A DNA stretch of 64,000 nt from Bdellovibrionota bacterium (GTDB lineage Bacteria; Bdellovibrionota; UBA1018; CAIPTA01; JAALKR01): contig CBDBMJ010000003.1 of NCBI GenBank assembly GCA_965207455.1, positions 281,838 to 345,837 on the forward strand, given 5' to 3'. The notes beneath the pieces were generated by a model. That model was not told the origin of the DNA. It saw nothing but the letters and a program-made list of their open reading frames with translations, and did not search any database. This document shows, piece by piece, positions 1 to 47,955 of the stretch (position 1 is the stretch's first letter; every line of letters begins with the position of its first letter). A program made the position numbers and the translations under genes.

Positions 1-396
1 GGCACCCTTCCACAAACCACAAACCGACGGAACCTCTTCTCCATCGTCAACAGGAACCTTCACACGAATCCTATCTTTATTTTGAAGGGAGAGAAGATGA
101 TAAACCACGAAGAAGCGGGCACTGTCTCCCTCAGACTTAACCACACCTAAATTATAGTCGGGAATAGTTACATGCTTGGGATTATGATCGTAGGCCGTTA
201 TGTCCGAAAGAAAGTTATACTCCAAGACTTCGTCCAGACGAATAAAATCAAGAAATTCAAATATGTTTTCCTTTGCAATCAATACTATGGGACAATCTGT
301 TTTCTCCAAACTCACCCCTTCAATAATTTTTGCATACTTGGAATGTAGTAGCTCTATCCTCGCCTTAGAAAAGTCGGACCCCAAAGAAACTGTCAT
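1..396 (-). CDS. nuoC: NADH-quinone oxidoreductase subunit C (canonical copy; runs off window start)
   Basis: ATG at 396 overlaps nuoB stop (ATGA); translation MTVSLGSDF...[11 protein letters not shown]...[23 protein letters not shown]...[11 protein letters not shown] is typical NuoC; not in ORF track because it is truncated. Confidence 0.9.
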
Positions 397-860
397 AACT
401 CCGCCTTACCCGTTCGTACTTTCTCCTGCAATCTCATCAAACCATGGAGAACACCCTCAGGGGTAGGCGGACAGCCCGGAATATACACGTCTACGGGAAT
501 AATTTCGTCCACTCCCTGCATAACACTATAGGTATCAAAAATTCCTCCCGAGGCAGAACAAGCTCCCATGGCCAATACCCACTTGGGATCGGCTATTTGA
601 TCGTAAATACTTTTTAGTACAGGCCCCATTTTATTTGTAATCGTTCCTGCAATGATCATCATGTCGCTTTGTCGGGGAGAAAAACGAACAACCTCGGCAC
701 CAAAGCGAGCCATATCATAATCGGCAGAAAGTACTGCCATCATCTCAATACCACAACAACTCGTACCAAATGGGTAGGGCCACATGGAATTGGAACGGGC
801 CCAGTTGACAAGCTGATCTAATTTCGTGGTAACAATTTCTGGTGCGCCATCTTTTCCCAT
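393..860 (-). CDS. nuoB: NADH-quinone oxidoreductase subunit B (canonical copy)
   Basis: [33 protein letters not shown]; start taken at MGKDG (860), just after nuoA stop. Confidence 0.95.
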
Positions 861-861
861 A

Positions 862-1224
862 CTACTCCCACTCCAATCCACCACTGCGCCACTCATAGAC
901 GAAAGCAACCGTGAGAATGGTTAAAAAGGCCAACATCGTATACAGGGAAAAAGTGTTGACTGCCAAGAACTGCTTATACACAAGAGCCCAGGGAAAGAGT
1001 AAAACCACCTCCACATCGAACAGCAGGAAAGAAATGGCAACGAGGTAGAAGCGAATGGAGAAGCGCTTATTTTCCTTGCGACTAGGGGGGACTCCGCACT
1101 CAAAAAAGGTATTTTTCATATCATTGGGGCGCTTGGGTCCCAGGAGACCTACAAGCAATATCGTGGAGGCTGCTATTACTACAGCGACTAAAAATAAAAT
1201 AAGAATGGGTACATATGGAGACAT
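862..1224 (-). CDS. nuoA: NADH-quinone oxidoreductase subunit A (canonical copy)
   Basis: [36 protein letters not shown]. Confidence 0.95.
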
Positions 1225-1273: not shown

Positions 1274-2731
1274 TCAAAAAATTAAAAAGAGGCGAGCCTG
1301 TTTCAACAGTAATAATAGGAATTCTCCTCCCCAAAATCCCCATAATAACAGCGGAAGTAGGGCCAGAACCAAGGCTAGACGAGTAAGCGTGCCCTGTATG
1401 ACTGGATCTGCCCGGGGAGTGCTTGCTGGGGGATCTTCAAAGAAGAGAACTGCCACCAAACGTGCAAAAATCATAACCTGAACCAGCAAATATAGTAGAA
1501 ACAAGGAGAAAACCACGGGTTGACTCTGAGCAAAAATCGTTCCCAGCGCCTGGAGTGTGGAGAAAAAGCCCATCATGGGCGGCAACCCTGCCAAAGAAAT
1601 CAATACCAAGAGTAAAAGAAAGCAGAAATAGCTTCGACCCATGCCGCATAATTCCTCCATTTTTTCTTTCTTTTGTGACAAGCAAAGGCCCCCAAGTATC
1701 CAGAAATACAGCACTAAACCCATACTGATGCTAATAAATTGAATTACGATGGTGGAAAGAACCTGGGCATTAATGCTGCTCATCACAACCAAAAGGGAAG
1801 ACCACTGCATCAGGACTATATGGGCAGAAAAGCAGCGAATATTTTTTTGGGCCAGCGCACCAAAAGCCCCATAAAATAAACCACAAAAGCCACAAACCGT
1901 AAATCCCATTAAAATACTAAGCCCCATGGTGGATGCCTGAGTCTCCGTTTTCATAAAAAACAAAAAAATAACAATTTTGATCAGGGCCAAAACACCTGCC
2001 CCCTGGATCAATAACGACTGGATGGCCTGATCGAGCCAAGTGGAGTTCTGCCCCCTATTAATCCCAATAAAATGGAAGGGAAATAGGGCGCTCACACAGA
2101 AAAAGGGTAGGAACAGCATAAAGATAAGGGGAACCCCATACAGGCCGTTTAAGCCATGAATATAGTTTTTGATTTCCGTGTATGTCAAAGAGTCCAGTTG
2201 CGTGGATAGAATCACTAAGACAGCAAAGCTTAAGCAAAAGCAAACACTGGATTGAAGGTAGGACTGTGCGGATATTTTTCTCCCCTCCCTCCCAGACATG
2301 GCAGAAAGAAGAATAGAGAAAAGCATTAGGCCGGATAGGCAAATAAAAGAGACGAGTGCATGCTCAGATAGGAGTAATACAGAGGAGAAAAAAGCTATGT
2401 TGACAATAAAAAATGAAAATTCCGCTCCCTTGTTAAAGGAAAATTTTTCCGAATAGTGGGTGAAGAGCAATAATAATAAGGAAACCACAAAGAGTGTGAA
2501 GCGAACAAAGACAAATACGGGATTCAAGCCAATGGCAGAAGAAAATAAAGAGATATTTTCTGTCGGTTGATAATATAAGGTGCTGAAGGCTGCAAAAGAC
2601 ATTCCCAACAAAGATAGACCTCGAATGAAAGAACGAGACTTGCTCCCATCTCCAAATGCTAAAAAAAACAGGATCAGAAAGGATGAACCAAGGAGTGTTA
2701 TCTCAGGCAATATGGGCAGATAAAAAGACAC
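1274..2731 (-). CDS. nuoN: diverged NuoN-like antiporter subunit
   Basis: 485 aa polytopic; LPEI, FPFHF, GALAQKNIR, SLAGLPPMMGF; last gene after L-M-M. Confidence 0.8.
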   Translation of the reverse strand: MSFYLPILPEITLLGSSFLILFFLAFGDGSKSRSFIRGLSLLGMSFAAFSTLYYQPTENISLFSSAIGLNPVFVFVRFTLFVVSLLLLLFTHYSEKFSFNKGAEFSFFIVNIAFFSSVLLLSEHALVSFICLSGLMLFSILLSAMSGREGRKISAQSYLQSSVCFCLSFAVLVILSTQLDSLTYTEIKNYIHGLNGLYGVPLIFMLFLPFFCVSALFPFHFIGINRGQNSTWLDQAIQSLLIQGAGVLALIKIVIFLFFMKTETQASTMGLSILMGFTVCGFCGLFYGAFGALAQKNIRCFSAHIVLMQWSSLLVVMSSINAQVLSTIVIQFISISMGLVLYFWILGGLCLSQKKEKMEELCGMGRSYFCFLLLLVLISLAGLPPMMGFFSTLQALGTIFAQSQPVVFSLFLLYLLVQVMIFARLVAVLFFEDPPASTPRADPVIQGTLTRLALVLALLPLLLWGFWGGEFLLLLLKQARLFLIF

Positions 2732-4147
2732 CTATCCCCCTCCTAAAAGATTTAATGCTTCACTCACAGCATAGGAAAAATAACGGGATAATAATCGAGG
2801 ATAGATTGTGAGTAGAACTAGGCACCCACCCATGAAAAAACAACAAAGGGCATCCCAGGAGTGCAGGCGTAGTAAGGGCGCTCTCTCTTTTGCGTATTCT
2901 TCATGAAAAACCGGAGACAGGGAGCGGTAGCAAGAAACCACTAGGAGTAGTGCAAGGAACAAAACGATGGGGAAAACAAAGATCGTCTCCTTAGCTGTGA
3001 GCCCGTAAAAAATCAAGAGCGTGCTGTGGAATCCAAAGGAAACGGGAAGACAGAACGCAGCCAGCATAGTATAGACGGAAAACAATAATAATTTTGGATT
3101 ATTGGGCGCATTCCCTAAGTACCCATCCTTACTCCCTCGCTCACTGATATCTATTATGGTAAATATGGCGGCAAGGATAAGAAATAAAAATATTCCCATC
3201 ATCAAGGCTCCAACGAAGCCTTCTTTGTTTCCGGAGCTTATACCTAAAAATATAAGCCCACTGAAAATTTGTTGAAACAATACTATTTGATCTCTTAGAG
3301 AAGTGCACCGTAAAAGCAATAGCGCAGGCAGGAGCATGGACACTAAGCCCACTATAAAAAATAAAAATTGAAATTCCATAAACTCGTTGGAAAAATCAGG
3401 AAACAAAAAACGAAGAAATGCGTAGAGCCCGAAATTGTAAACAGTCATCACAGGCAATAGAAGAATTAAATTCTTTGCACTGGACAATCGTCTCAAAAGC
3501 CAGTGGAAAGGAATCATTTTTATAAAAAATACTCCAGAGAGGAGTGCAAAGATCAAATATTTCTTAGAGCCTACCTCAACAGCGGAGTAAAACTCTGGGT
3601 ATAGAATAAAAAAGCAGACAAGCAATAAAAAAATACTAATTGTACTTATGAGCATAAATGGTTTACTGAGGCGTTTTAACTCTGTAGATCCATCCGTACC
3701 AATTAAAAAAGTAGCGGGGACGATGCACAGGGCAGAAAAGAAAAGAAAGGAAAACAGGGTTGATGAGGCGTACATTCCTAAGACACCAAACTCCAGTAAC
3801 ATTAAAGAGATAATTTTACCTCCATTGAGTCTTTCTCGACCCACCAGCACCACCACCATAAATACAAGGCTAGTTACCCATAAAAAGGGTGAATTAAGAG
3901 CATCTGTCGCAAAGTTTGTATTAATATTCCAAAAACCGGACCAAGGGTACGCACCAACACCAGGTACTATTTTTTGTGTTACGGCAAGTGCCTCTAAAAA
4001 CATCCATGTATGAGTTAGAAATATAAATATTGTAGATAGTGCCACAGAAGACCACAGCCAGGAGTTCGCTTTATTCCAAAATAAAAAGCCAATAGCGGCA
4101 AGCGCTAGGGGTAAAAAGATAGTAATTTGTAAAAAAAACTCTGGCAT
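2732..4147 (-). CDS. nuoM: diverged NuoM-like subunit (second copy)
   Basis: PW...INTNFATDALNSPF, VPATFLIG, FFIKMIPFHWL, YAFLRF, CLPVSFGF; start at MPEFF (4147). Confidence 0.75.
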   Translation of the reverse strand: MPEFFLQITIFLPLALAAIGFLFWNKANSWLWSSVALSTIFIFLTHTWMFLEALAVTQKIVPGVGAYPWSGFWNINTNFATDALNSPFLWVTSLVFMVVVLVGRERLNGGKIISLMLLEFGVLGMYASSTLFSFLFFSALCIVPATFLIGTDGSTELKRLSKPFMLISTISIFLLLVCFFILYPEFYSAVEVGSKKYLIFALLSGVFFIKMIPFHWLLRRLSSAKNLILLLPVMTVYNFGLYAFLRFLFPDFSNEFMEFQFLFFIVGLVSMLLPALLLLRCTSLRDQIVLFQQIFSGLIFLGISSGNKEGFVGALMMGIFLFLILAAIFTIIDISERGSKDGYLGNAPNNPKLLLFSVYTMLAAFCLPVSFGFHSTLLIFYGLTAKETIFVFPIVLFLALLLVVSCYRSLSPVFHEEYAKERAPLLRLHSWDALCCFFMGGCLVLLTIYPRLLSRYFSYAVSEALNLLGGG

Positions 4148-4149
4148 AA

Positions 4150-5616
4150 TCAGTAAACAAAACCCAAGAGTCCCACACTCCCAAGCCAGGAAATCAAACA
4201 AAAGAAAAGGCAAAGTGTGGCTAGTTTATAGTTAGCCTGCCAAGCCTCTCCCTTACTGTTAGATTTACCCTGAACATCAATGTCCTTTCCAAATCCATGA
4301 TCGAAAAAAAATATTCTGTAACCGCAATAAGTGAGTATGGTAGAATACAATGTCCATAATAGGACTAGCAAAATAGAATGCTGAAGACTGGAATCAAAAA
4401 TTACAGCGCCGGGCAAGGCAAAAATATAATACACAGGAGTCCCGGGAATACTCACTAAAAAAACAAAGATGAGGAGAAATGTGGCTTTGTTGAGCGACCC
4501 TAGAAAATCATTATCGCATAAAAATCGAATGAAAACGGATAATACGGGAATGGTAATGCTGATTAAGTATACAGATTGAAAATTTTCCGGCGAAAAGAAG
4601 CCTATAGAATAAAAGGCCATCCCCAGAAAAAAAACAATAATGCTCCCCAAAGCTCTTTCTTTATATCCAGCTGCGCACAATAAATAACCGGAGAAAATTG
4701 CCATAAAAAATCCAAATATAGATATATTTCTCAAAAAAATCTGGCTCTCTTTGGGCAGGATAGAAACTATTTCATTAAAAATAAATAGAATGGCGCCCAT
4801 AAAGATACAAAATGGAATGGAAATGATAGAGGAAATTTTTTTCTCTTCTCTTTCTGAATTGAAAATACCCATAAACCACGCAGACCAAAAACACAGGGGA
4901 AGAGAGAGGGCAAATGCGCTCACTAGAAAAAGGATGGTCCACAAATCTCCATCGAACGTTGCACCAGAAAGCGGAGCAGAAAACACAGCTGCAAAAGAAC
5001 TAAAATTCAAGGAGCTCATTTCAAAAACAAAGGATAGGGACACCAAAGATAAGAGCATTACAATACCTCCAGAGATCTGAAGCAAAGCTGCCAACTCTCC
5101 ATGCATTTCCTTTTTTGCCTTGCCAGCATCCACCTTAATATCCTGACAATAAAACAAGCGCAACAGGAGAAACAAAACAATGCTAATAACTATGTGAAGT
5201 ATGGAAATTAAAAGTAAATTTTCACAAACCACGTAAAAACTAATCAGCCCTTTAAAAAAAATAAGTAGAGATATGGCTCCCACAGACACTTTTTGCTTTT
5301 TGTAATAGTCTTGGAACAAGAGGAATAATACCAGAAAACATGCGTCAAAAATAAGAAGTAAGAAGGCATTCCTTGAGGTCAATGCCACCTCCCAAGCTAT
5401 TCCCATCATGGGTAAAAATGGGGCAGAGTCTCTCAAAGGGGCACCTCCCTGTAATAAATGAGAAAGAAAGAAAATCAAAATAAGGCAAGAGAAGAAACTG
5501 GTAAATACACCGCACAGAGCATTCCACCGGTGCCCATAAAAAAATATATACTGAGCACTCCCAACGATTAAGGGTGCTAGCAAAAATATCCAAAAAAGCG
5601 GTATATATAATTCCAT
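4150..5616 (-). CDS. highly diverged NuoM-like subunit (first copy)
   Basis: 488 aa polytopic; PFLPMMGIAWEVAL, LFLVSAFALSLPL..W, SIPGTP; position between L and M. Confidence 0.6.
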   Translation of the reverse strand: MELYIPLFWIFLLAPLIVGSAQYIFFYGHRWNALCGVFTSFFSCLILIFFLSHLLQGGAPLRDSAPFLPMMGIAWEVALTSRNAFLLLIFDACFLVLFLLFQDYYKKQKVSVGAISLLIFFKGLISFYVVCENLLLISILHIVISIVLFLLLRLFYCQDIKVDAGKAKKEMHGELAALLQISGGIVMLLSLVSLSFVFEMSSLNFSSFAAVFSAPLSGATFDGDLWTILFLVSAFALSLPLCFWSAWFMGIFNSEREEKKISSIISIPFCIFMGAILFIFNEIVSILPKESQIFLRNISIFGFFMAIFSGYLLCAAGYKERALGSIIVFFLGMAFYSIGFFSPENFQSVYLISITIPVLSVFIRFLCDNDFLGSLNKATFLLIFVFLVSIPGTPVYYIFALPGAVIFDSSLQHSILLVLLWTLYSTILTYCGYRIFFFDHGFGKDIDVQGKSNSKGEAWQANYKLATLCLFFCLISWLGSVGLLGFVY

Positions 5617-5620
5617 TTCT

Positions 5621-7402
5621 CTATCCCGTTAGTATCAGTAGTACAACCATAGTCAAAATAAAAAAAACAGAGAAAAATAAATATGCTCTAGCAGCGCTAT
5701 TTTGCACGCGTTGGACAAAATGAGATAAAGAGTGAGCAAGAACGGCGCTGCCATTCAAGAGAACATTCATAATAACTGTTCCATCCAGACAGTTTATTTT
5801 TTTAGATACAAAATCCAAAAAAACCAATATTTTTTTTTGAGAAGCGGTCAAAATACTGGATTGTATATGGAAAACAAAAATATTGACTTTATCTAAAATA
5901 TTATACATATAGGGTACTCCCTCCGATTCAAGGATCTCCCTTTTTCTTGAAAGATAAAGAGAAAACTTTTGACTTTTAGCTAGCCCTCCCCCTAGGAAAA
6001 AACCAATCACGGTCAGGAACACTATGGATGCAGCGGTATATAACATAATACTGGACGACTCTCCTGTCATAGTGGGCAAAATTCCATTCGTTCCCGAATA
6101 GACCCACTCCAATAAAGTTCCTCTCATCAAAGGCTCATTGCCCACTAAGAGAATGAAAATACCCAAATATACGCTAATGTCCTTAGATGGTATCTGCCTA
6201 TCTATCTTCCAAAACTCCTCGTCATCTCCAGTCGTGAGCAAGAGCCTAGAGAATACACCTGTAAGCAATAACGATTGGAGGCACAGGAGAATAAACAGAG
6301 CCAAGTCCACTGACCCTATCCTATTGAAAAACAAAAATAATGCTGAACCCGGAAATCCTACAATAATTAAATGGGCAATGCTGGCCACAAGTAGTGGGAT
6401 TTTCCTCTGAGCACCTCGCAGCTTCACATTAGATAAAGTTAAACAGATACATTGCAGGGATAGTAAAACAAGACAAATAGCGAAAGCTATATTAATGGCA
6501 TTATCAGGTGAAAAATGGATTAAAAAAATAAGATTTAAGGACAGGACGGACAGAATATAATTTTTAATGGAATGGGTTCCTTTACTAGCTAGGAGCGCAC
6601 GCACAGCACAGAAGATAGAAAATATAGCTAGTAGATAACTATACACACCCAGATAAATATCATCCAGACCTGTGCCAATGGCTTTCCTCTGTAAAGCAAA
6701 ACAAGCTAAAAACAGGAGAACTTGGGGAAGATGATCAAACCAAGAAATATATTTCGAGCGAAAGGAAATTACTGTAATAATGTATAGTAATAATCCTCCG
6801 TTCATAAAATTCCAGATGGAAAATATCTCTTCAAAGGAAAGTATAAAAACTAAAAAAATAACTAAAAAAACAAATATTTTTTGCTTGAAGAAATCAAGCA
6901 TCTCCACCCCATGAGACATTTTTCCCTCAGCTCTCATACCAAGAAAATAAGCTAGAAATATTAGCAACTCCACGAATACTAAAACAGGCACCATCGTTGT
7001 GATAAGAATGGATAGGTTACTAAAAATAAATAAACATAATAATACGGGAAACCGAGATACTCTGTTTTTCTCTTTATAAAAATCAGGGAATGCCAATGTG
7101 CCAAAAAATAAAAGGAGAGAACTTCCTAAAATCCAACACACACTTTCCTCATTCAGTAAAAACTGGAGTTCAAATTGCGAAGGAATTTTCAAAAAATTCA
7201 AGGAAAGGGCGAGGGGAGAAAAAAAAGAATCCACCCCCATCAAGGCAATGGCACTGACTAGAATAGGTATAAGAAAAACCATCAAGGAAAGGTAGTAAGA
7301 ACTAAGCCATGACGCTCTGTTGGGAAAGAAAACCATAGTAATTCCATAGATCGCCGGTACGATAATGGACGCGCCAAAGATAAAATAATGAATTAGACTC
7401 AT
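5621..7402 (-). CDS. nuoL: diverged NuoL-like subunit
   Basis: 593 aa; YKEKNRVSRF, IVGFPGSALF, C-terminal LDGTVI..LNG...RVQNSAARAYL matches the NuoL lateral helix/TM16. Confidence 0.7.
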   Translation of the reverse strand: MSLIHYFIFGASIIVPAIYGITMVFFPNRASWLSSYYLSLMVFLIPILVSAIALMGVDSFFSPLALSLNFLKIPSQFELQFLLNEESVCWILGSSLLLFFGTLAFPDFYKEKNRVSRFPVLLCLFIFSNLSILITTMVPVLVFVELLIFLAYFLGMRAEGKMSHGVEMLDFFKQKIFVFLVIFLVFILSFEEIFSIWNFMNGGLLLYIITVISFRSKYISWFDHLPQVLLFLACFALQRKAIGTGLDDIYLGVYSYLLAIFSIFCAVRALLASKGTHSIKNYILSVLSLNLIFLIHFSPDNAINIAFAICLVLLSLQCICLTLSNVKLRGAQRKIPLLVASIAHLIIVGFPGSALFLFFNRIGSVDLALFILLCLQSLLLTGVFSRLLLTTGDDEEFWKIDRQIPSKDISVYLGIFILLVGNEPLMRGTLLEWVYSGTNGILPTMTGESSSIMLYTAASIVFLTVIGFFLGGGLAKSQKFSLYLSRKREILESEGVPYMYNILDKVNIFVFHIQSSILTASQKKILVFLDFVSKKINCLDGTVIMNVLLNGSAVLAHSLSHFVQRVQNSAARAYLFFSVFFILTMVVLLILTG

Positions 7403-7419
7403 ACTCCTAGCACCTCAGA

Positions 7420-7710
7420 CTATCCCTCTTTTCCATGATCTGTTTCTCTATCTCTTGTCATCAAAGACAGACTTGCTATAAAAAATAAAATACAGAAAAA
7501 GATACCCACAAAAACTAAAATGGAAAGCATTTTAATTTTTTCTGGAAACATGGTTAACCATATGATAGCTGCGTATGCGCAGGCTTTGAGAGAAATAATT
7601 TGACCCAGAACGATAGAAATAAATGCCTGCCTTGCCATCATCATTCCCAGACCAATGCAAAAAATTCCCGCTGCAATGATAAGATGAATTTTCAAAAATA
7701 ATAGATCCAT
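7420..7710 (-). CDS. nuoK: diverged NuoK-like subunit
   Basis: ~96 aa, 3 TM, AAGIFCIGLGMMMAR; gene order J-K-L. Confidence 0.7.
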   Translation of the reverse strand: MDLLFLKIHLIIAAGIFCIGLGMMMARQAFISIVLGQIISLKACAYAAIIWLTMFPEKIKMLSILVFVGIFFCILFFIASLSLMTRDRETDHGKEG

Positions 7711-7718
7711 ACCACCTA

Positions 7719-8210
7719 TCAATCTTTAGAGCCAACAGTGGCAAGCGCGCCTATGGAAGCCGGTGCAACAATGAACATACAGAGAAGAATAAATTTCCAG
7801 TTTTCTCCCAAAAAAGAATTTTCCGAATATGCCAAAACACTTCCAGATGCCGTATCTATTTCAGGAATACTCATTCCATTCCAAGCACCCCATACCACTA
7901 AACACCCGATAAAAGAAACAAAGCACATCATGACTACTAGATAGAATCGCTCCCAACCTTCGATTTTTATCTTATTTTCTGGCAGCAAATTTGTGGAGAA
8001 TATAAAGAATAATAAAATCAAATCTAAGATTAAAAAAATTGGTGTTACCCAGAGCAGGATACTTACTTTTAATAAAAAATAAGCTAGCAATGATATATTG
8101 CATGTTAGGATAGCAGAAGAGATAAGTACTGCAGATTTAGATGGTGAAAATGCCATTGCTAGAGCAACCACAATCGCCACAACACCAAATAGTATGAGAA
8201 TAACCTGCAT
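7719..8210 (-). CDS. nuoJ: diverged NuoJ-like subunit
   Basis: 163 aa, 5 TM, C-terminal ASIGALA; gene order I-J-K. Confidence 0.65.
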   Translation of the reverse strand: MQVILILFGVVAIVVALAMAFSPSKSAVLISSAILTCNISLLAYFLLKVSILLWVTPIFLILDLILLFFIFSTNLLPENKIKIEGWERFYLVVMMCFVSFIGCLVVWGAWNGMSIPEIDTASGSVLAYSENSFLGENWKFILLCMFIVAPASIGALATVGSKD

Positions 8211-8215
8211 TTTCC

Positions 8216-8707
8216 CTATCTCCTTATCTCGTAATAACGAATCAATTGTTTTTTCTTCTTTTGATAGGACTTATCTGTAACCATTCCTGAAAAATTAAAA
8301 ACAAGACCAGAGCGATAAAAAGCGCCTATTTCATAATCATTAGTATGAACGATACTTTTCACAGGGCATATATCCACGCAAATGGAGCAAAAAACGCATT
8401 TTCCAAAATCTATCCAAAAATCATTTACTTTCATAGAGCCGTCCATCTTAATTCCAGAATCCATGCCAATGGCTTGCGACGGACATGCCTGTACGCATTC
8501 ATTGCAACCAGTACATACCTGAAGATCATTTTGTAATAGCCCCCTTGCCCTAGAGTTCGGGCCCTTAAACATTTGCAAGGAGGAAACTTCTGGGTAGGCT
8601 TCTGTGAAGCGCTGGAATTTTGCCTTCCTAGAAAAAGTGTATGGCAATAATGACAAAACAGCAGTCCATATTTCTCTTATCTTATAGATTATATTAGATT
8701 TCTCCAT
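8216..8707 (-). CDS. nuoI: NuoI-like 2x[4Fe-4S] subunit
   Basis: TEAYPE, RARG, CTGCNECVQACP, IDFGKCVFCSICVDICP; RBS GAGGAGG before MEKSN. Confidence 0.9.
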   Translation of the reverse strand: MEKSNIIYKIREIWTAVLSLLPYTFSRKAKFQRFTEAYPEVSSLQMFKGPNSRARGLLQNDLQVCTGCNECVQACPSQAIGMDSGIKMDGSMKVNDFWIDFGKCVFCSICVDICPVKSIVHTNDYEIGAFYRSGLVFNFSGMVTDKSYQKKKKQLIRYYEIRR

Positions 8708-8714
8708 ATCCTCC

Positions 8715-9602
8715 TCAAGCACCCAAGTAAAAAACAAGCCAAAAAAGTTCTCCCACAAAAGCTAAAAAAATAGCTGGCAAAATTTTCTTAAATCCAAACT
8801 CCCATGCATCTTTTGTTCTCATAAAGGGAAAGGAATTTTGTATCCACAGGAACGCAAACAATGTACTCACTAAAACCAGGAAGAAAACGGAAAGTCCCTT
8901 TATGGTATATATGGGGAAAATAATATTAATATGTAAAATGACAAGCAGGGCAGCAAGATTAATTATCCACAGGATAGTGGATAGATGATAAATCCCATCC
9001 CACATCCCATTAAATTTCCTTCCGCTGCCATCGATGAACGGGGAAGAGGGAACAATAAAAAATAAAGAAAGAAACCCACATAGAAAAGACAAAACGCTAA
9101 ACGGACTAAAAATTACTTCATTGCTTTTATTATTCAAGTACAGCAAGGCCGGAAGCGTGGAAGGAATATACAAAGCTATACCAAATACACGAGATAAACC
9201 CAATCGTTGTGAGAAAATAAAAACATCTTTATTTTTAAAATAAAACAAAAACAAACTATCTATCATAATTGCAAAAAGTAAAATAGAATACAAAGATAGG
9301 ACTTTCTCATAGAGCAGGCGAGCTTCCTGCGTAAAGGAAAATAAGATAAAGCAGAATAAATAGGGCAGTGCAAGCCCCAGGAAAATGGCAAAAATAAAGA
9401 AAATACTTTCTTTTCCTCTCGTCTCTGCTCGTCTTTTGCTCATTTGTTTTATAAAATCTAGCAATACTTGATAAGTGCCTCCAAAACCCGATCTACTAAT
9501 TCCAATTCTCTGCTGCGTTTTTGCTGCCAGACCTCGCTCCATGGATAAATACAAATAGGCTGCCATATTGAGTGCTAAAAATAAAAAGAAAATAAAACTC
9601 AT
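8715..9602 (-). CDS. nuoH: diverged, shortened NuoH-like subunit
   Basis: MERGLAAKTQQRIG, QVLLDFIKQMSK, WIQNSFPFMR..D, FGFKKILP. Confidence 0.75.
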   Translation of the reverse strand: MSFIFFLFLALNMAAYLYLSMERGLAAKTQQRIGISRSGFGGTYQVLLDFIKQMSKRRAETRGKESIFFIFAIFLGLALPYLFCFILFSFTQEARLLYEKVLSLYSILLFAIMIDSLFLFYFKNKDVFIFSQRLGLSRVFGIALYIPSTLPALLYLNNKSNEVIFSPFSVLSFLCGFLSLFFIVPSSPFIDGSGRKFNGMWDGIYHLSTILWIINLAALLVILHINIIFPIYTIKGLSVFFLVLVSTLFAFLWIQNSFPFMRTKDAWEFGFKKILPAIFLAFVGELFWLVFYLGA

Positions 9603-9604
9603 TA

Positions 9605-10699
9605 CTACCGCTCCACCTCAGACATGGAAATATCAAAATTATGAATAATTAGAGGAGCATCTTCCAGCGCTTCCTTTAATAACACTTGAGGCAAAAACTT
9701 CAGCATAAAAAAAGAAGGTGTAGAAAATTTCACACGAGCTGGCTTACTGGACCCATCACTAGAAACAAATACACCCAAAGCTCCTCTGGCACTCTCCACC
9801 TCTGCATAAGCACCCCCACGAGGAGGGCAAAAATCCATGCCAATGGAAACGAAAAAATTCCCTGGCGGTATTCGACTAGCCCCTTGCCGGATGATGGCTA
9901 TGCTCTGCTGGATTTCCCGAAACCTATAGAGAAAGCGATCAAAACAATCCCCATCCTGTTTCTTAGTCCAGTGGATGGGCACAAAAAGATCGGAGTACGC
10001 TGCGTAGGTTTTTGCCTTTCTAATGTCTAACTCTCCTCCTGAGCATCGAGCGTTTGCGCCGGTAATACCATGTTCTTTTACTTTCTCTGGAGACAAAATA
10101 GCTAAACCGGTTAATCTCTCATAAAAAATAGGATTTTTTACTAAAATATTATCTAATTCTAATAGAAAAGACTCCGTATCACACAAGGTCTTTTCTATTC
10201 TATGTAAAAGACCTTCACTCATATTATTCCTAACTCCACCAATACAAATGGAGCCAAATGGAATTCTAGAACCACAATACATCTCAAATATATCTAAATA
10301 CTTCTCTCTTTCTCTTAAGCTAAAATGATGTATGTTTTTTGAACCAACACAGAGAGAGACCTGAGAAATATAGTTCAAGTGACTAACAATCCTGCTCAAT
10401 TCCAATAATATAACTCGAATAAAATCTGCCTTCAACGGCACTCGTATGCCTCCCAGCTTCTCCACAGCTAGAGCAAAAGCAAGATTGCAGGCTGGAGCAG
10501 ATAAATAATCCACTTTATCAGAATAAACAAGGCCCACCATATAGGGCACTTTTTCAAAGCACTGTTCGATTCCTCGATGACAATACCCCAGATCAATCTC
10601 GGCACTTTGGATCAACTGCCCATTCACCTGTGTTTTTAGCACAAATGGTCCAACTGTACTGGAACTCTGTTTTATTCCTGGTATGATATTTATTTCCAC
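9605..10699 (-). CDS. nuoD: diverged NuoD-like subunit
   Basis: GYCHRGIE, DKVDY, RVILLELSRIVSHL, GDCFDRF, VESARG, PARVKFSTPSF, EVER; no NiFe CxxC motifs. Confidence 0.9.
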   Translation of the reverse strand: MEINIIPGIKQSSSTVGPFVLKTQVNGQLIQSAEIDLGYCHRGIEQCFEKVPYMVGLVYSDKVDYLSAPACNLAFALAVEKLGGIRVPLKADFIRVILLELSRIVSHLNYISQVSLCVGSKNIHHFSLREREKYLDIFEMYCGSRIPFGSICIGGVRNNMSEGLLHRIEKTLCDTESFLLELDNILVKNPIFYERLTGLAILSPEKVKEHGITGANARCSGGELDIRKAKTYAAYSDLFVPIHWTKKQDGDCFDRFLYRFREIQQSIAIIRQGASRIPPGNFFVSIGMDFCPPRGGAYAEVESARGALGVFVSSDGSSKPARVKFSTPSFFMLKFLPQVLLKEALEDAPLIIHNFDISMSEVER

Positions 10700-10701
10700 A
10701 A

Positions 10702-11106
10702 CTAAGGCAAGTCCTCTCTCAATAAAAACGGCTGAGGATGGAGCATATCTTTAAATTTCACCTTAAACATTTCCCGTATCTCCCGTTCAAACCAATTTGC
10801 AATCGGCCACACTTTCTCCACGCTGGAAATAGATTTTGTGTTTGGAACACTAGTACATACACTTAAATAATTATCCCAAAGGGAGGAACTCAACCCTGTA
10901 ATTATTAAAGTTTTGGAGTCACTTTCCTTCATCGCTGTCAAAAAACACAAACGATGAAATAGAAGCTTTTCTTCTTTATATAAGAGCTCCAATGATTGCA
11001 CCCAATCCTTATCATCCACATCTATGATTATATGCTGATTCTCTTCACGAATATTCCAAGCACTGTTTGCTTGCTGGAGTTCTTTAATTAGATCTGCTTG
11101 CTTCAT
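10702..11106 (-). CDS. nuoC: diverged NuoC-like subunit
   Basis: SVEKVWPIANWFEREIREMFKVKF...HP. Confidence 0.85.
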   Translation of the reverse strand: MKQADLIKELQQANSAWNIREENQHIIIDVDDKDWVQSLELLYKEEKLLFHRLCFLTAMKESDSKTLIITGLSSSLWDNYLSVCTSVPNTKSISSVEKVWPIANWFEREIREMFKVKFKDMLHPQPFLLREDLP

Positions 11107-11560
11107 CTAGCTTACGCCCCATAAAAATTTTCTTTTGTAATGCGTGTATCCCGTGGATTAGGGCTTCTGGCTTCGGTGGACACCCAGGAATATAAACATC
11201 CACGGGCAAAATAAGATCCACCCCGTTTATTACTGTGTCGCTATGAACAGAAAAAATTCCTCCTGTATTAGCACAGCTTCCCATGGAAATTACATATTTA
11301 GGTTCCAACATTCCATGGTATAGTTCTTGGACTTTTCTCGAAATAGCTTTAGTAATAGGGCCAGCCACAATTAAAAGATCCGCGTTTCTATAATCATCTT
11401 GTGGCAAAAGGCCAAATCGCTCCAAATCATAACGAGGTCCTGTGCTTGCTGTAAACTCCAAGGCGCAACAAGATAAACTGAGAGGAAAGGCCCAGAGAGA
11501 CCGGCCATGCACTTTTGAAAAAATCTTTGATGTATTAGAAAGAAAAAGATCCGTTTTCAT
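11084..11560 (-). CDS. nuoB: diverged NuoB-like subunit (N2 cluster ligands present)
   Basis: [35 protein letters not shown]; ATGA overlap with upstream gene. Confidence 0.9.
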   Translation of the reverse strand: MKTDLFLSNTSKIFSKVHGRSLWAFPLSLSCCALEFTASTGPRYDLERFGLLPQDDYRNADLLIVAGPITKAISRKVQELYHGMLEPKYVISMGSCANTGGIFSVHSDTVINGVDLILPVDVYIPGCPPKPEALIHGIHALQKKIFMGRKLDEASRSN

Positions 11561-11934
11561 TTTTGCAACCAATGAATACTCATGATCCAGTTCAAAAATT
11601 TTCTCCTAGATCCATAAGCAAAAATCAAACCCAAGAGAACTGGCCCCAATACTATTTTTATTAATGTCAAAGTGGAATCTTCAACTCTTAGTGATAAATA
11701 ATTCTGAAAGCTTAGGGCCATGGGAACGATAAAAATAAGACATGCCCAGGTGATTAAAACATAGATAAGAAAATAAATATCCTGCGGAGCTTCTCCATGG
11801 TTTCGAGCCTTCTGGAAGCGAGGTGAACGATAAAAATAGCCTAAGGGGCTGGAAAGGGAATAGGTGGCAACGGCTACGATCAAAAGAACGAATAACGCAA
11901 ATAGTAAAAAACCAGAATCTATGAAAACTTGCAT
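11557..11934 (-). CDS. highly diverged NuoA-like 3-TM subunit
   Basis: ~125 aa, 3 TM, C-terminal AYGSRRKFLNW resembles YxWRxGxLxW; first gene before nuoB-like. Confidence 0.6.
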   Translation of the reverse strand: MQVFIDSGFLLFALFVLLIVAVATYSLSSPLGYFYRSPRFQKARNHGEAPQDIYFLIYVLITWACLIFIVPMALSFQNYLSLRVEDSTLTLIKIVLGPVLLGLIFAYGSRRKFLNWIMSIHWLQK

Positions 11935-12064
11935 ACTTACAGCGTATGCAGGTTGTGCTATAGAGTCAACCGCCAGCAAGAGCTCACCTTGTTTCTTTCC
12001 CACAAATATCCTATATGTGAAAGAGGAAGAACAAAGCATAGCTTGAGATTACGCGGAGCATTGA

Positions 12065-21806: not shown

Positions 21807-21973
21807 GGGACTTTCCTTATTATTAATTAACTACATATGACGCGGCTTATCAAGACTAAATTATAACCGTCTTACTCGGTATTTTTTTGTTAAAAAAAAT
21901 TAAAAAATAGCTTTTATTTGAGCGCAGTGCGGTGTAACATTGCGCAATGTATTATTCAGATGAGCATAGGCGA

Positions 21974-24900
21974 ATGAAAATAAATCCGACAAAATTAATT
22001 CTTTATAGTGCTCTACTGTCCTTATTGTCCCTCACCTCCTGTAAAAGCGACACCCCCGACCCCCCTCTAAAACTTATGACACAAAATCTGTATTTAGGGG
22101 CAAGCCTGCATCCCCTATTAAGCGACCCAGCCGGCCCAGCCGACCCAACAGCAGTAGCAAAGATACTAAAAGCAATGGAGAAAACAAATTTTCCAGCAAG
22201 AGCACGGGCACTTGCAAAGATAATCCATAGCACTCGCCCAAATGTATTGGCTCTTCAGGAAGTCAGTCACCTTCGTATTGTAGATGCTGCTGGCAAAACC
22301 ACAATGAATGTGGATTTCCTCAGTATTTTACTTAATGAACTTAAAAACCTTGGCATGGAATATACAGTTGCAGCCAATGCCTTAGGCCCCGACATTATGG
22401 TTCCTCTATTTATAAGTGGTGCCTTTACTGCTTCAGTTCATTACAAAGGCTACAATACTATTTTGATTGATTCTAGTCTAACGGCAAGCGGAAGCAAAAT
22501 AAAGAACTACGACAAACAACAGAGCACTCCCATTGGATTAACATTTACTAGAAACTACGTGAAAGTTACTCTATCAAAAATTCCAAACCCATGGGAGTTG
22601 GAAGAGATAAATGATATTGTTATTGTAAACACACATTTAGAGGCTGGATCCAAAGAAGTACAAGAAGCACAAGCTAGTGAACTTGTGAATATGCTTGGTA
22701 CTATTGATGAGCCTATCTTTCTTCTAGGAGATATCAATAGCGCCGCAAACAATGTAGTAAAGAAAAATCAAACAAACAGTTACCCTCTTTTGATCAGTTC
22801 TTCTTTTAAAGACCCATACCTCGAACTTAACCCCACTGCCCCCCCTATTAGCACTTGTTGTTATGACGAGCATTTATCTTCCAACAAATTTGTGGGAGAA
22901 GGACGCATTGACCACATTCTATATAAAAACAATTCTTTTTCACAAGCAAGACCTACTCGTTTTTCCCTAACTGGAAACAAACTGGGAGACAAGACAATAG
23001 TCAGCGATGAAGCGAAAGAACTCAGCCTGTGGCCATCGGATCATCTCGGCGTTGTGGTTGAATTTACGAACGTTTTTTCAACTCTTATACAAGAAAAAAC
23101 AGACCTCAGTCCACCCCCTCCTCCACCATCAGCGCCTAATACCGATCCAGAACCAACTACCAGTCCAGAGCCGATGATCGATACACCTCCAACCATACAA
23201 GTTCCTAAATTAGAGTTAACCACCACAGTAACGACAGATTCCCTTCCCCATTTTCGTACAACAACAAGCCGTAATAATCCAGGAACAGTTTTTCTTTATA
23301 CATCAGAAGACTGTACGGGCAATATCGCTTCTAAAAAATTTTTTATAGGCGATGCGGGAACAGTTGTCTCTTTCACATCCTTCGTATACAACCCAGGCAC
23401 ATACGATTTTTCAGCAAGAATTTGGCGAGGATTTGAAGAAGACCCCTACACACCTTGTTCCAACAGTGTTCGCTATACCTATGACCCACCTCCTGTACCC
23501 TTGAATGCTCCAAAATTAACTGGATTTGACCTTAGCAGCACACCATCACAGTACCCTAGTCCTAGATTTCTTGTAACCACAACAAATGACAGGAAAGGTG
23601 AGGCTCTTCTGTATCAGTCAGAGGATTGTACAGGTGAGAGCATTTCCAGTAAAACTTTTGACGGGCCTAAGAATACATTTCTAACGTTCACATCGTTAAT
23701 CCTTGAACCGGGTATATATAATTTTTCAACGGAAGTTCAGCGAGGTAGTGCAAAAACACCTTGCTCCAACAGTGTTCATTACCTCTACCATTCCATTACT
23801 GCCCCTAAATTAATACTAGCCCCCGGCTCTTCATCATCGAAAACCATACCCAGATTTCTTATGACAACAACAAATGATGGTAAAGGTGAAGCTCTTCTTT
23901 ATCAGTCAGAGGATTGTACGGGTGAGAGCATTTCTCAATCCTTCACAGGTGATGCAGGCACTGTGGTAACTCTTCAATCCCTTGCACTGGATCCAGGGAC
24001 TCATACTTTTTCAGTGCAAGTACAACGAAGCAGCGATCAAACACCCTGTTCTAATAATGCTAATTACAGCTACTCCCCTTTAAATGCTCCATTACTTGCA
24101 CTGGATGCCGACCCAATATCATTGAACCCCAATCCTAGCTTTCAGGTAACCACAACAAATGATGGAGAAGGAAGAGCCTTCCTTTACAAATCAGAAAATT
24201 GCACAGGTGAGAGCATTTCTAATAAAGTTTTCACTGACAATAGTGGTACCATTGTCACTCTTATATCTCCGGCGCTTGAGTACGGAGAACATATTTTTTC
24301 AGTACAAGTCCAGCGAGGTGATGACAAAACACCCTGTTCTAATAATGTTAATTACATGCGCCCACTCCTAAATGCCCCCACATTGTCATTACTTTACAAC
24401 GGGAATCCATCGGATTCTCCAATAGATAGTACTTTTAACTTTCTTGTGACCACAACAAATGATGGTAGAGGCGAAGCCTTTCTTTATCAGTCAGCAAATT
24501 GTAGTGGTAAGAGCATCCACTCCTTCACAACTAATAGTGAAACAGATATAAACTTCAAAATTCCAGAACCCGATCCAGGACGCCATACTTTTTCAATGCG
24601 AATCCAGCAAGATGGTAATTGGACATCTTGTTCTAATAATGTCAGCCAGTACGTCAACGGCGATATAAACACTCCAGATTTGTATCTTCATCTTGGATAC
24701 AGAAAATCTTCATATAGCCTAAATTATCCTTTATTTCTTATTCAATTAAATAATATCTCCAATGGAAATATCTTTCTTTATAAATCAGAAAACTGTGAAG
24801 GTGAGATTGTCGCAACAAGAACCATTATCCCTGGTTTCGATAGTACAATGAATATTAAATCTCCAGCACTTGAGCCTGGTACCCATACTTTTTCGGTAAA

Positions 24901-32472: not shown

Positions 32473-33612
32473 GGTGTTGTTGCATAAATAGCTCCAAATT
32501 GAGTCTGTGAGAGACCTCTAGTGCCCTCTGGGGCCTTCTGACGCGCCTAACTATATACCTTCAGCAAAAATATACTTAAATTGAAAGAAGGCAAGGAGGC
32601 CGACTATGAGTAAAAGAACGAAGAAAAACATCAATTGGTCAGAATATAACCGAGCATTGATAAAGCGTGGAGATATAAATTTATGGCTCGATGACGATAT
32701 GATAAAAAATTGGTATGCTCCTAGAAATCCCAACCCCCAGCGAGGTCGTCCATTCATATATAGTGATCGCTGTATAGAGCTAGGACTTATCTTTCGTAGC
32801 CTATTTCATTTACCCTTGCGTGCAACCCAAGGGTTTATGTGTTCGATGTTTAAGCTCATTAAAATAGGAGCATTAAAAATTCCAAACTATAGTTCATTTT
32901 CTCGACGTTCAAAAGATTTAAAAGTAAATATTTCCTATAAAGCAAAGACCCAAGGAATTACTGATATCGCCGTAGACTCTACCGGAATAAAAATCTTTGG
33001 AGAGGGTGAGTGGAAGATGCGAACTCATGGTAAAGGGAAGCGAAGGACTTGGAGAAAACTACACTTGGCAGTAGACCCCGATAGCCATCAAATCGTGAGC
33101 ATGGAACTGACAAAAGCCACTGTCCACGACGATCAAATGATGAAGCCATTACTAAAAGGTTTAAAAAATATAGGCAGAGTATATGCTGATGGCGCCTATG
33201 TCTCTAGAAATTGCTTTACTGCTATCGCAGAAACTGGAGCAAAGGCCAGCATAGCTCTCAGGACAGGTACATCAAAGTCTCAGGTCAGAGGAGACCCAGG
33301 TCTTAGTTTAAGGGATAAATTAGTTGAAGAGATTTGGAGTTATGGAGGAAGGCGAGCGTGGAAAAAACAAACAGATCATCACAAGCGATCAAATGTAGAA
33401 ACTTGCATGTATCGCTTCAAAAAAATACTAGGGAATACGCTCTCTAGCAGAAAATTTGAAAATCAGCTCACTGAAGCAAGAACTAAGGTCTTCATTCTCA
33501 ATCGGATGACTCATTTAGGAATGCCCCATTCCTCTACTATTACCTAAAAGATATGTGGATAGGCTCCCTATACCTCAAAATCAATCCTTACAAAATATTA
33601 CGCAACAACCCC
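32473..33612 (+). mobile_element. IS5-family (IS903 group) element, 1140 bp, 9-bp TSD
   Basis: IRs GGTGTTGTTGCATAA / GGGGTTGTTGCGTAA; AAGATTAAA duplicated at 32464-32472 and 33613-33621. Confidence 0.93.
32606..33547 (+). CDS. IS5/IS903-group DDE transposase
   Basis: NWSEYNRALIKRG, VDSTGIK.FGEGEW, RTWRKLHLAVD, ADGAY, RSNVETCMYRFK. Confidence 0.95.
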   Translation: MSKRTKKNINWSEYNRALIKRGDINLWLDDDMIKNWYAPRNPNPQRGRPFIYSDRCIELGLIFRSLFHLPLRATQGFMCSMFKLIKIGALKIPNYSSFSRRSKDLKVNISYKAKTQGITDIAVDSTGIKIFGEGEWKMRTHGKGKRRTWRKLHLAVDPDSHQIVSMELTKATVHDDQMMKPLLKGLKNIGRVYADGAYVSRNCFTAIAETGAKASIALRTGTSKSQVRGDPGLSLRDKLVEEIWSYGGRRAWKKQTDHHKRSNVETCMYRFKKILGNTLSSRKFENQLTEARTKVFILNRMTHLGMPHSSTIT

Positions 33613-33658
33613 AAGATTAAATTGTAAAAGCTTAATTTTATTAAAAGAAAGGACACCT

Positions 33659-47212: not shown

Positions 47213-47955
47213 ACAATAAAATAATTATAATCACAATACTTTCATATATTTTGCCCCTTGATTCCAGTTCAAGTGTGAAATCTCCGAATTGCTATATAAA
47301 TAAAAGTGCGATCCAGACTGTTGGACCAGGAGCTATGCTACATAAAGCTTCTTTATGCGGTGCTGACTTGAAAAAAACCAATCTAGCTAATTCTGATTTA
47401 AGCTATGCAAATCTAAAAAATACAAATTTTTATAGAGCAAATCTACATGCAGCAAATCTATACTCAGCAAACTTGGAAAATGCGTCGTTGTCCAAAGCTA
47501 GATTATGTAATGCTACGCTAGAAAAAACTTCTCTTTATAAGGCAAATTTAGAATATTCTCGCTTATATAGGACAAATTTAATGGGAGCAGACCTGCGCAG
47601 CGCAAATATAAGGCGTGCTGGACTTATCGAGGCTAATCTTACAAAAGCTAACCTAAGTGGAGCAGACCTATTCGGTTCAAAACTTTATAAGGCGAATCTT
47701 AGAGATGCGAATTTAACTGGAGCAATATTACATAAAGCAGATATGAGATATGCAGACCTTCATAATGCAAATCTTAATGGGGCAAACTTATCTTTGGCAG
47801 ATTTTACTAAAGCTACCGGGCTTGATAAACTTCAAAGTTTTAAGAATGTCTGGGCATACGAAGGGGCAGAACCCAAAGGACTGCCTCTTACTGTAATGAA
47901 CGAGTTAAGGAAAAACTTAAAAATTCGTCATAGAAAAAAAAATATAAGACACTAA
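47209..47955 (+). CDS. exported pentapeptide-repeat protein (short paralog)
   Basis: A(N/D)Lxx repeats; C-cap shared with the upstream gene. Confidence 0.92.
   Translation: MNNKIIIITILSYILPLDSSSSVKSPNCYINKSAIQTVGPGAMLHKASLCGADLKKTNLANSDLSYANLKNTNFYRANLHAANLYSANLENASLSKARLCNATLEKTSLYKANLEYSRLYRTNLMGADLRSANIRRAGLIEANLTKANLSGADLFGSKLYKANLRDANLTGAILHKADMRYADLHNANLNGANLSLADFTKATGLDKLQSFKNVWAYEGAEPKGLPLTVMNELRKNLKIRHRKKNIRH

Follow-up and report, generated by a model that had tools for sequence, protein, structure and literature searches.

What does complex I become when the buried charges of its membrane arm are lost? Debate continues over how the enzyme links quinone chemistry to the pumping of protons 200 Å away, and it centres on a chain of buried Glu, Lys and His residues. 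The question is raised by a 64,000-nucleotide stretch of the genome of a Bdellovibrionota bacterium (contig CBDBMJ010000003.1; the whole stretch is referred to here as the window), which carries, ahead of an ordinary nuo operon, a second and highly divergent nuo operon of 12 genes. An earlier note on this DNA, made by eye, had proposed that the proton-pumping charged axis is erased across the encoded membrane arm. Alignment bears this out for most of the arm, 16 of the 17 axis positions scored in its H', A', K', N', M2 and M1 subunits being lost, but the erasure is not complete: subunit L' keeps E145 and R215, and J' D63 and K' K46 are invariant in their families. The locus presents a natural, selection-maintained architecture, with four antiporter-like subunits, a lateral helix and an iron-sulfur (Fe-S) wire, that does without nearly all of the charge chain, and the encoded complex probably no longer pumps protons, as judged from its sequence.

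Gene set and subunit identities

The 12 genes are tightly packed on the minus strand (window 1274-12039) in the order A' B' C' D' H' I' J' K' L' M1 M2 N', with identities assigned by Pfam or by position. The set holds A, B, C, D, H, I, J, K, L, M, M and N only; NuoE, NuoF and NuoG are absent. An 11-gene second complex I occupies the same site in other families of the Bacteriovoracia (genomes G053, G305, G022, G041, G337 and G058), and its subunits are homologous one by one to those of the 12-gene set (hhalign 85-99.9%), providing a bridge for the most divergent members. The features are as follows, residue numbers throughout being those of the longest open reading frames (ORFs).

11557..11934, minus strand: A', NuoA-like, 125 residues; ATG at 11934; first by position, as in eight syntenic loci
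11084..11572, minus strand: B', NuoB-like, carrier of cluster N2; Pfam Oxidored_q6, E 1.1e-26
10702..11106, minus strand: C', NuoC-like; Pfam Complex1_30kDa, E 4e-17; short (134 residues vs 192 in the canonical subunit)
9605..10699, minus strand: D', NuoD-like, short form; Pfam Complex1_49kDa, E 1.7e-60
8715..9602, minus strand: H', NuoH-like; Pfam NADHdh, E 2.2e-13; 295 residues vs 365 in the canonical subunit
8216..8707, minus strand: I', NuoI-like, two 4Fe-4S clusters; Pfam Fer4 families
7719..8210, minus strand: J', NuoJ-like; no Pfam or NCBIfam match; hhalign via the 11-gene NuoJ
7420..7722, minus strand: K', NuoK-like; Pfam Oxidored_q2, under its cut-off
5621..7402, minus strand: L', NuoL-like, with lateral helix and C-terminal anchor helix; 11-gene bridge, AlphaFold2 model and Foldseek
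4150..5616, minus strand: M1, first NuoM-derived antiporter-like subunit; no Pfam or NCBIfam match; hhalign and Foldseek
2732..4213, minus strand: M2, second NuoM-like subunit; Pfam Proton_antipo_M, E 2e-6
1274..2731, minus strand: N', NuoN-like; Pfam Proton_antipo_M, E 7.7e-7
1..1224, minus strand: start of the resident canonical nuo operon; nuoA 862-1224, nuoB 393-908, nuoC 1-396 (the window edge cuts nuoC)

Intergenic gaps within the 12-gene operon range from -64 to +17 nt, and Shine-Dalgarno-like motifs precede several of its genes. The likely start of I' is ATG 8707, with GAGGAGG in front of it, in an ORF open from 8758; M2 has two candidate starts, TTG 4213, with a 64-nt overlap with M1, and ATG 4147. 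The A' frame is open for 35 codons above its likely ATG at 11934, up to 12039, leaving 25 nt to the divergent mfd gene (start 12065). At the other end, canonical nuoA begins 49 nt past N', a gap in which no terminator-like hairpin was found, and the ordinary 14-gene operon continues beyond the window edge, its D, E, F, G, H, I, J, K, L, M and N genes being located in locus L030. The sole NuoF of the genome sits in this canonical operon. The canonical NuoG (L030:10245-11642) measures 465-508 residues in this genome and its relatives; the usual bacterial NuoG is much longer.

Family models recover the set unevenly. Pfam gathering scores are passed by B', C', D', H', I', M2 and N' (M2 and N' weakly, E ∼1e-6), with A', J', L' and M1 left without a match. 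NCBIfam scores fall far under the curated cut-offs (NuoN 45.7 vs 332.6, NuoM 81.6 vs 263.8, NuoD 301.7 vs 360, NuoH 24.1 vs 399), and no NCBIfam match is found for M1, L', K' or J'. This carries a warning for annotation: several such genes are labelled as plain 'NADH-quinone oxidoreductase subunit', and L', M1, J', K' and A' escape the family models.

The operon recurs in related genomes. A search with H' matches 23 of 61 relatives in all, with near-full-length hits from the same family and from 8 of 9 sister-family genomes. In the loci of eight relatives these 12 genes recur, their order unchanged, ahead of canonical nuoA-B-C, and all 12 frames are open in the complete loci; in each of the 11 genomes of the order, the M1 profile detects a frame without interruption. 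Of the 401 genomes searched in the phylum, the L' profile matches 16. L' of full length occurs only in this order (eight genomes), contig-end fragments are present in G006 and G009, and the remaining six matches, in other families, cover the C-terminal end only. By family, L' is found in 1/1 genomes of f1, in addition to the window genome, and in 8/8 of f2 (six full length, two fragments). Loci L002-L006, returned by the NuoD' search, are ordinary 14-gene operons of other phyla and were set aside.

Three independent alignment routes were followed: profile-profile comparison (hhalign), joint MAFFT alignment, and comparison of family profiles with solved chains (E. coli, Paracoccus, Mycobacterium, Thermus). 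The 9-orthologue families comprise the window and eight relatives, and the reference comprises the resident canonical subunits and their orthologues (8-9 sequences), in which the key positions are invariant. E. coli numbers, following the axis-residue numbering in the available part of PMC9271201, were transferred to the resident subunits through a constant offset and the invariance of the positions rather than through a direct alignment. In hhalign comparisons with the canonical families, M2 pairs with NuoM (99.6%), N' with NuoN (99.5%), H' with NuoH (97.5%) and K' with NuoK (78%). The direct match of A' is weak (39% to canonical NuoA), and the link runs through the 11-gene NuoA (90%, itself 95% to the canonical subunit); J' is likewise linked through the 11-gene NuoJ (85%, itself 95%), and M1 matches the 11-gene NuoM at 98% and M2 at 93.8%. 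Among solved chains, the N' profile matches M. smegmatis NuoN (8e9g_N, 8e-25) and E. coli NuoN (7.5e-17), the M2 profile P. denitrificans NuoM (8qby_M, 1.4e-37), the H' profile E. coli NuoH (7nyh_H, 2.8e-22), and the K' profile E. coli NuoK (3rko_K, 4.3e-6). A single-sequence search of the PDB with H' gave chance matches only, the family profile being required, and a word-index search with the M1 alignment returned the query itself alone.

L' is the most elusive subunit, with no Pfam, NCBIfam or PDB sequence match (the PDB having been searched with the profile); a profile search of 1,835,955,588 representatives returned 37 proteins, with no canonical NuoL among them. Its homology is therefore shown through the 11-gene bridge (hhalign 97.4% to the 11-gene NuoL, itself 93% to canonical NuoL) together with a structure model. 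The AlphaFold2 model of L' (24 sequences; pLDDT 77.9, pTM 0.76) has helices at 450-476, at 478-495 and 498-566 (long), and at 571-592, the layout of transmembrane helix 15 (TM15), lateral helix and TM16. Foldseek returns 151 PDB matches at E<=0.001 for this model, and the best 50, classed by chain name and length, are NuoL/ND5/NdhF except for one MrpD model, with TM-scores of 0.51-0.62. The M1 model (nine sequences) has a pLDDT of 66.6, with residues 157-261 poor; of its 121 PDB matches at E<=0.001, the best 50 are all antiporter-like chains. On their modelled folds, L' and M1 are real antiporter-like subunits. Database look-alikes, useful as leads only, consist of unnamed clusters for L' and Proton_antipo_M clusters for M1.

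Loss of the charged axis

The canonical axis residues can be followed column by column through the nine orthologues, listed with the window first. In M2, NuoM E151 (E. coli E144) faces A161 (column AISTAAAAS), K240 (K234) faces K232 (KQRRNSGGI, basic in 3/9), K271 (K265) faces N260 (NHNNILLLI) and E413 (E407) faces T398 (TLILVAVVL). In N', NuoN E143 (E. coli E133) faces S133 (SGFYVVIVM), K229 (K217) faces V213 (VGVIAAVAL), K259 (K247) faces Q243 (QQSTQQQQQ) and K411 (K395) faces T392 (TVLLLIIAN). The TM5, TM7, TM8 and TM12 positions of M1 are uncharged in all nine orthologues. Axis residues kept therefore number 0/4 in N', 0/4 in M1 and 1/4 in M2 (the non-conserved K232). The E-channel acids are lost as well: NuoK E41 (E. 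coli E36) faces K' I42 (column IAVAVLLAV), next to Q41, which is Gln in 7/9, and NuoK E72 faces a non-polar column; NuoA D79/E81, the Asp and Glu of FDVE, correspond to W98/C100 of A', in what is the weakest of the alignments. H' has lost E157 (which faces a non-polar column in the comparison with 7nyh_H), the second membrane Glu and the acidic TM5-6 loop; the charges of its TM1-2 loop are kept (E22, R23, R32, R37, D49, K52 and K56). Over the scored positions, the replacements are mostly hydrophobic or small residues. Joint MAFFT gives the same columns as hhalign, and the solved-chain profiles agree save for a 4-residue shift at N' TM8, which places Leu, not Gln, opposite the Lys.

The alignments also show that the by-eye register was right, the strings picked out earlier facing the canonical NuoM, NuoN, NuoK, NuoA and NuoH axis residues. 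K' 38-43 reads VLGQII opposite the TM2 Glu of NuoK, with a non-polar residue at the Glu position by every alignment route, and the region of the acidic NuoH loop reads PSSPFIDGSGRKFNG in H' (185-199). The TM5 Glu is gone from M2 (158-161, FFSA) and N' (129-133, FICLS), as is the TM7 Lys from M1 (234-240, AFALSLP) and N' (211-218, FCVSALFP), and A' lacks the ECG and FDVE motifs, both of which the canonical NuoA encoded at 862-1224 has. FFIK is present in M2 of the window (229-232), but the column of its Lys is basic in a minority of the orthologues.

Since the axis losses are found in all nine orthologous operons, they are no accident of this genome. Overall charged-residue content is equal in the divergent and canonical subunits (10-16%), so that the loss is specific to the axis positions. 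The canonical-invariant polar positions (Ser/Thr/Asn/Gln/Cys) are nearly all lost too, with 1/28 kept in M2, 2/13 in N' and 1/15 in H', and the canonical-invariant Gly and Pro are retained best (15-17/35 in M2). This indicates that the arm has lost its hydrophilic lining as well as its charges but has held on to the residues that define its fold. TM7 and TM12 still have their Pro/Gly-rich breaks, and N' TM7 its PFH motif, whose H220 is present in 9/9. A comparison of whether the window's family carries fewer charges than family f2 proved symmetrical (72/144 one way, 52/143 the other).

Charges were also sought at shifted positions. The canonical columns of N', M1 and M2 are uncharged or non-conserved, but buried charges do exist elsewhere, in part where canonical complex I has them. 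L' E145 is invariant in 24/24 family members, lies within a hydrophobic helix, and is the sole invariant charged residue of the subunit; the direct hhalign comparison, itself of low confidence, and 5/6 segment alignments place it opposite the TM5 Glu. L' R215 sits at a [RK]S....W..LP-type motif like that of the TM7 Lys (matched by eye), and the position is basic in 19/24. Equivalents of the TM6 Asp, TM8 His, TM11 His/Lys and TM12 Lys/Asp are missing from L' in alignments of low confidence. Two further buried charges, each invariant in 9/9, are absent from the 11-gene relatives: J' D63, which falls in the YAGA-I-M stretch of NuoJ TM3, three residues past the conserved Tyr, and K' K46, which faces E. 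coli NuoK N40. D63 and K46 may form a salt bridge. A crude alignment-free hydropathy count, whose segmentation over-splits helices and which serves as a rough check only, gives ∼24 conserved buried-charge columns in the canonical arm vs 12 in the divergent arm, mostly at other positions (none in M2, one in M1, three in N').

Probable redox function and competing explanations

In the peripheral arm, all eight ligand cysteines of clusters N6a and N6b are present in I', in the window and in 9/9 orthologues, and B' has 4/4 of the N2 cysteines in the window and the complete set in 8/9 orthologues. The exception is G002 (L026, G002:C9, B' 11464-11898), in which three of the four N2 cysteines are replaced by Phe, Ser and Asn (CC->FS, PGCPP->PGNPP). 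These are genuine codon changes in an intact 12-gene operon, and the B' concerned is 65-70% identical to those of its congeners.

D' is best matched by T. thermophilus Nqo4 (2fug_4, 3e-72). Y87 of this chain, which we take to be a quinone-site residue (its position was checked by counting in the alignment), is kept, and is retained in 7/9 D' sequences of the 12-gene form. The QHPxxHG loop is absent from D', and chain residues 306-329 (24) are deleted, a deletion common to the short NuoD of Binatia and other metagenome-assembled genomes, which retain the loop. H38 and D139, quinone-site residues according to the available part of PMC4758237, face non-polar columns. A group 4 [NiFe] hydrogenase or Mbh identity was rejected: D' lacks the CxxC pairs at either end and matches Nqo4 better (3e-72) than Mbh (6cfw_L, 5e-50) or FHL (7z0s_E, 7e-44). 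In G004, D' (L028, G004:C34, 2949-3983) carries a further internal deletion on a branch of 2.93, with an M2 branch of 4.14, and evolution of the 12-gene set looks faster still in this genus.

Retention of the Fe-S ligands favours a redox enzyme over a pure scaffold. The reading we favour, to which we give an even chance of being correct, is that the operon encodes an assembled, redox-active but non-pumping relative of complex I, whose arm would be a scaffold for a remodelled acceptor site. The 12 gene products would assemble into an L-shaped complex, and electrons would run through the two NuoI-type clusters to N2. The membrane arm would no longer translocate protons by the known mechanism; with its fold kept (four antiporter-like subunits, broken helices, lateral helix and anchor), it may now serve mainly to scaffold and anchor the acceptor site. 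The most likely activity would be non-electrogenic (uncoupled) electron transfer. A ferredoxin-type carrier or the cell's single NuoEFG module could act as donor, and the acceptor would lie in the membrane, being probably menaquinone or a related compound bound otherwise than in complex I. Adjacent chorismate-binding and thiamine pyrophosphate enzyme genes in the window (60472-63451, plus strand) resemble menF and menD, which suggests menaquinone as the membrane quinone of this organism. The earlier note had summed up the encoded complex as a non-pumping or differently gated pseudo-complex I. Its sequence indeed fits no canonical proton pump, but the options then offered (scaffold, sensor, uncoupled oxidoreductase or other-ion channel) are not narrowed by sequence alone.

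Several observations weigh against the favoured reading. The invariant buried Glu and mostly basic TM7 residue of L', together with the newly arisen and likewise invariant buried charges J' D63 and K' K46, would allow a reduced or rewired ion path. Scaffolding alone makes it hard to explain why four large subunits (∼2,060 residues) have been kept, with M duplicated. With H38 and D139 lost, quinone may not be the acceptor at all. G002, finally, keeps the operon without three of the four N2 ligands, so that electron transfer may not be the conserved function everywhere. A purified complex could show what role the arm plays without its charges, whether any coupling survives, and what use predatory-type bacteria make of an uncoupled complex I.

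An unlikely alternative, though the strongest of the rivals, is a rewired ion translocator, in which redox chemistry is still coupled to ion movement through the L' Glu/Arg pair, the J' Asp (TM3) and K' Lys (TM2), and polar residues still present, among them N' Q243, H220 and K252, with the lateral helix or the broken helices as mechanical carriers of the coupling. Such a device is supported by the conservation of these L', J' and K' charges, two of which (J' D63 and K' K46) are absent from the 11-gene relatives, by the retained TM7/TM12 Pro/Gly breaks and PFH motif, by the lateral helix and anchor of the L' model, and by purifying selection on all four antiporter-like subunits. However, the subunits that separate L' from the acceptor site, M1, M2 and N', have no conserved charge at the four axis positions, and the alignment-free count leaves them with the few buried charges given above. 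The near-complete loss of canonical-invariant polar residues, and the lack in L' of the TM8 His, TM11 His/Lys and TM12 Lys/Asp, also speak against this reading.

Somewhat less probable again is a non-redox pseudo-enzyme with a structural, assembly or regulatory role tied to the downstream canonical complex I, for example as a scaffold, a supercomplex partner, or a site at which the single NuoEFG module is stored or docked. The operon stands directly upstream of the canonical one in the locus of every relative examined, here across the hairpin-free 49-nt gap, and the genome has a single NuoF; the loss of the quinone-site His and Asp, and the codon changes at N2 in a G002 B' otherwise so close to its congeners, point the same way. 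Yet the NuoI cysteines are complete in 9/9 and those of N2 in 8/9, Y87 persists in most D' sequences, and the NuoH TM1-2 loop charges, which line the acceptor cavity, are conserved; together these indicate a working redox site.

We consider it improbable that the arm, its hydrophilic axis removed, has been re-engineered such that redox-driven movement at the acceptor site is passed mechanically, through a J' TM3 Asp/K' TM2 Lys lock, the broken helices and the lateral helix, to one distal site, the Glu/Arg pair of L'. If true, this would be a natural 'one-site, conformationally coupled' complex I, in which mechanical coupling is split from electrostatic coupling.

The 12-gene operon evolves 3-10x faster than the resident complex I. 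Between the window and G001, of the same family, identities in the divergent and canonical subunits are respectively 33% and 69% for H, 28% and 57% for J, 34% and 68% for K, 22.5% and 63% for L, 24% (M1) or 32% (M2) and 61% for M, and 29% and 56% for N; end branches are 0.2-2.9 for D' vs 0.06-0.18 for canonical D. Because synonymous sites are saturated in every pair (proportion of synonymous differences, pS, ∼0.62-0.87), a proper dN/dS estimate is impossible. In the closest within-genus pair (L024/L025), the nonsynonymous proportion, pN, of the membrane subunits is 0.20-0.34 vs a pS of 0.62-0.80, and the operon, on this pattern of substitution, is under purifying selection. M1 and M2 each form one supported group holding all nine genomes (SH-aLRT 100 and 97), so that the duplication is old and both copies have been retained; long branches leave the deep relations in the NuoD and NuoM trees unresolved. 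A decaying relic, that is, a duplicated or transferred nuo cluster nearing loss under relaxed selection, would account for this very fast evolution and for lineage-specific losses such as the N2 ligands of G002 and the further D' deletion of G004, but is very improbable given 12 open frames in every complete locus, an M1 free of internal stops throughout the order, pN far under a saturated pS, the long-kept M1/M2 pair, and the family's own invariant residues.

Elsewhere in the window, two transposase genes stand side by side at 32606-34807 (plus strand), one of the DDE_Tnp_1 type and one of the ISL3 type; a near-identical DDE-type ORF lies just past the canonical nuo operon (L030:357-1298). 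A protein of 1666 residues (21947-26947, plus strand), possibly a predation factor that is secreted, has MtxA-type Ig-like repeats together with an endonuclease/exonuclease/phosphatase domain and a protease domain of matrixin-like type. Two consecutive pentapeptide-repeat proteins of 562 and 248 residues are encoded at 45524-47955 (plus strand).

Relation to known complexes

Compared with canonical complex I (E. coli, T. thermophilus and the resident operon), the 12-gene set supplies homologues for 11 of the 14 core subunits, without a change of order. It shares the N2, N6a and N6b ligands, the NuoH TM1-2 loop charges, and the antiporter-like fold with its TM7/TM12 breaks and the NuoL lateral helix and anchor. 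Unlike canonical complex I, it lacks NuoE, NuoF and NuoG and has a second NuoM-like subunit; the E-channel acids are lost, as are the TM5/7/8/12 Lys and Glu residues in N', M2 and M1; and its NuoD is without H38 and D139 and carries a 24-residue deletion.

By gene content, the operon falls under NUO11+M in the nomenclature of Degli Esposti 2015 (the available part of PMC4758237), in which NUO11 and NUO11+M designate clusters with no N-module: it consists of A, B, C, D, H, I, J, K, L, M, N and an extra M, with no E, F or G. Ca. Actinomarinales carries an 11-gene nuo paralogue (PMC7771536, available part), and Peredibacter is described with two nuo clusters in the accessible text of PMC13147790. 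Like the NUO11 and NUO11+M clusters as presented in the available parts of PMC4758237 and PMC7771536, the 12-gene set has no E, F or G and sits alongside a 14-gene operon. Those sources, in the same parts, treat NUO11 clusters as working quinone-reducing or F420-linked enzymes and make no mention of proton-path loss, nor does the accessible text on Peredibacter. No paper on the loss of proton-path residues in such a nuo paralogue was found in a literature search that left supplements uncovered.

The duplicated NuoM invites comparison with the 2M complex I, which Chadwick et al. are said to have described in 2018 and which reportedly has extra pumping capacity and a NuoL lateral helix ∼26 residues longer. 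The 12-gene set is like the 2M enzyme in having two tandem NuoM-type genes between L and N, and unlike it in that both M copies are without pump residues. The TM15-TM16 linker of L' spans 89-102 residues by a crude hydropathy measure, not longer than in the single-M 11-gene relatives. By the same crude measure, the NuoL linker of these relatives (L029, L039-L043), which have a single NuoM, is 97-115 residues in five of six and 57 in L043, and that of canonical NuoL ∼82-93.

The 11-gene form is likewise among the nearest known systems. Like it, the 12-gene set lies upstream of canonical nuoA, lacks E, F and G, keeps its Fe-S ligands, and has lost the NuoK and NuoA acids and the NuoD His loop. 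In the 11-gene form, the NuoK acids are kept in 0/6 and the NuoA acids in 0/4. Its NuoM keeps the TM5 Glu in 1/6, a TM7 Arg in 6/6, the TM8 Lys in 4/6 and the TM12 Glu in 2/6; its NuoN keeps the TM5 Glu in 3/6, a TM7 Lys/Arg in 4/6 and a TM12 Lys/Arg in 6/6; and its NuoL is without the TM5 Glu, TM7 Lys and TM8 His. Unlike this form, which has one M and part of the axis, the 12-gene form has M duplicated, and those M and N residues are gone from M1, M2 and N'; conversely, its L' has the invariant Glu, and J' D63 and K' K46 are new. The sister families thereby offer graded intermediates of charge loss. Because the 11-gene form is without the NuoK and NuoA acids but still has some of the NuoM and NuoN residues, the series would fit an early loss of coupling at the E-channel, followed by a decay of pump residues that is complete in the 12-gene form. 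The 12-gene locus is an extreme, M-duplicated form of the 11-gene second complex I of other Bdellovibrionota.

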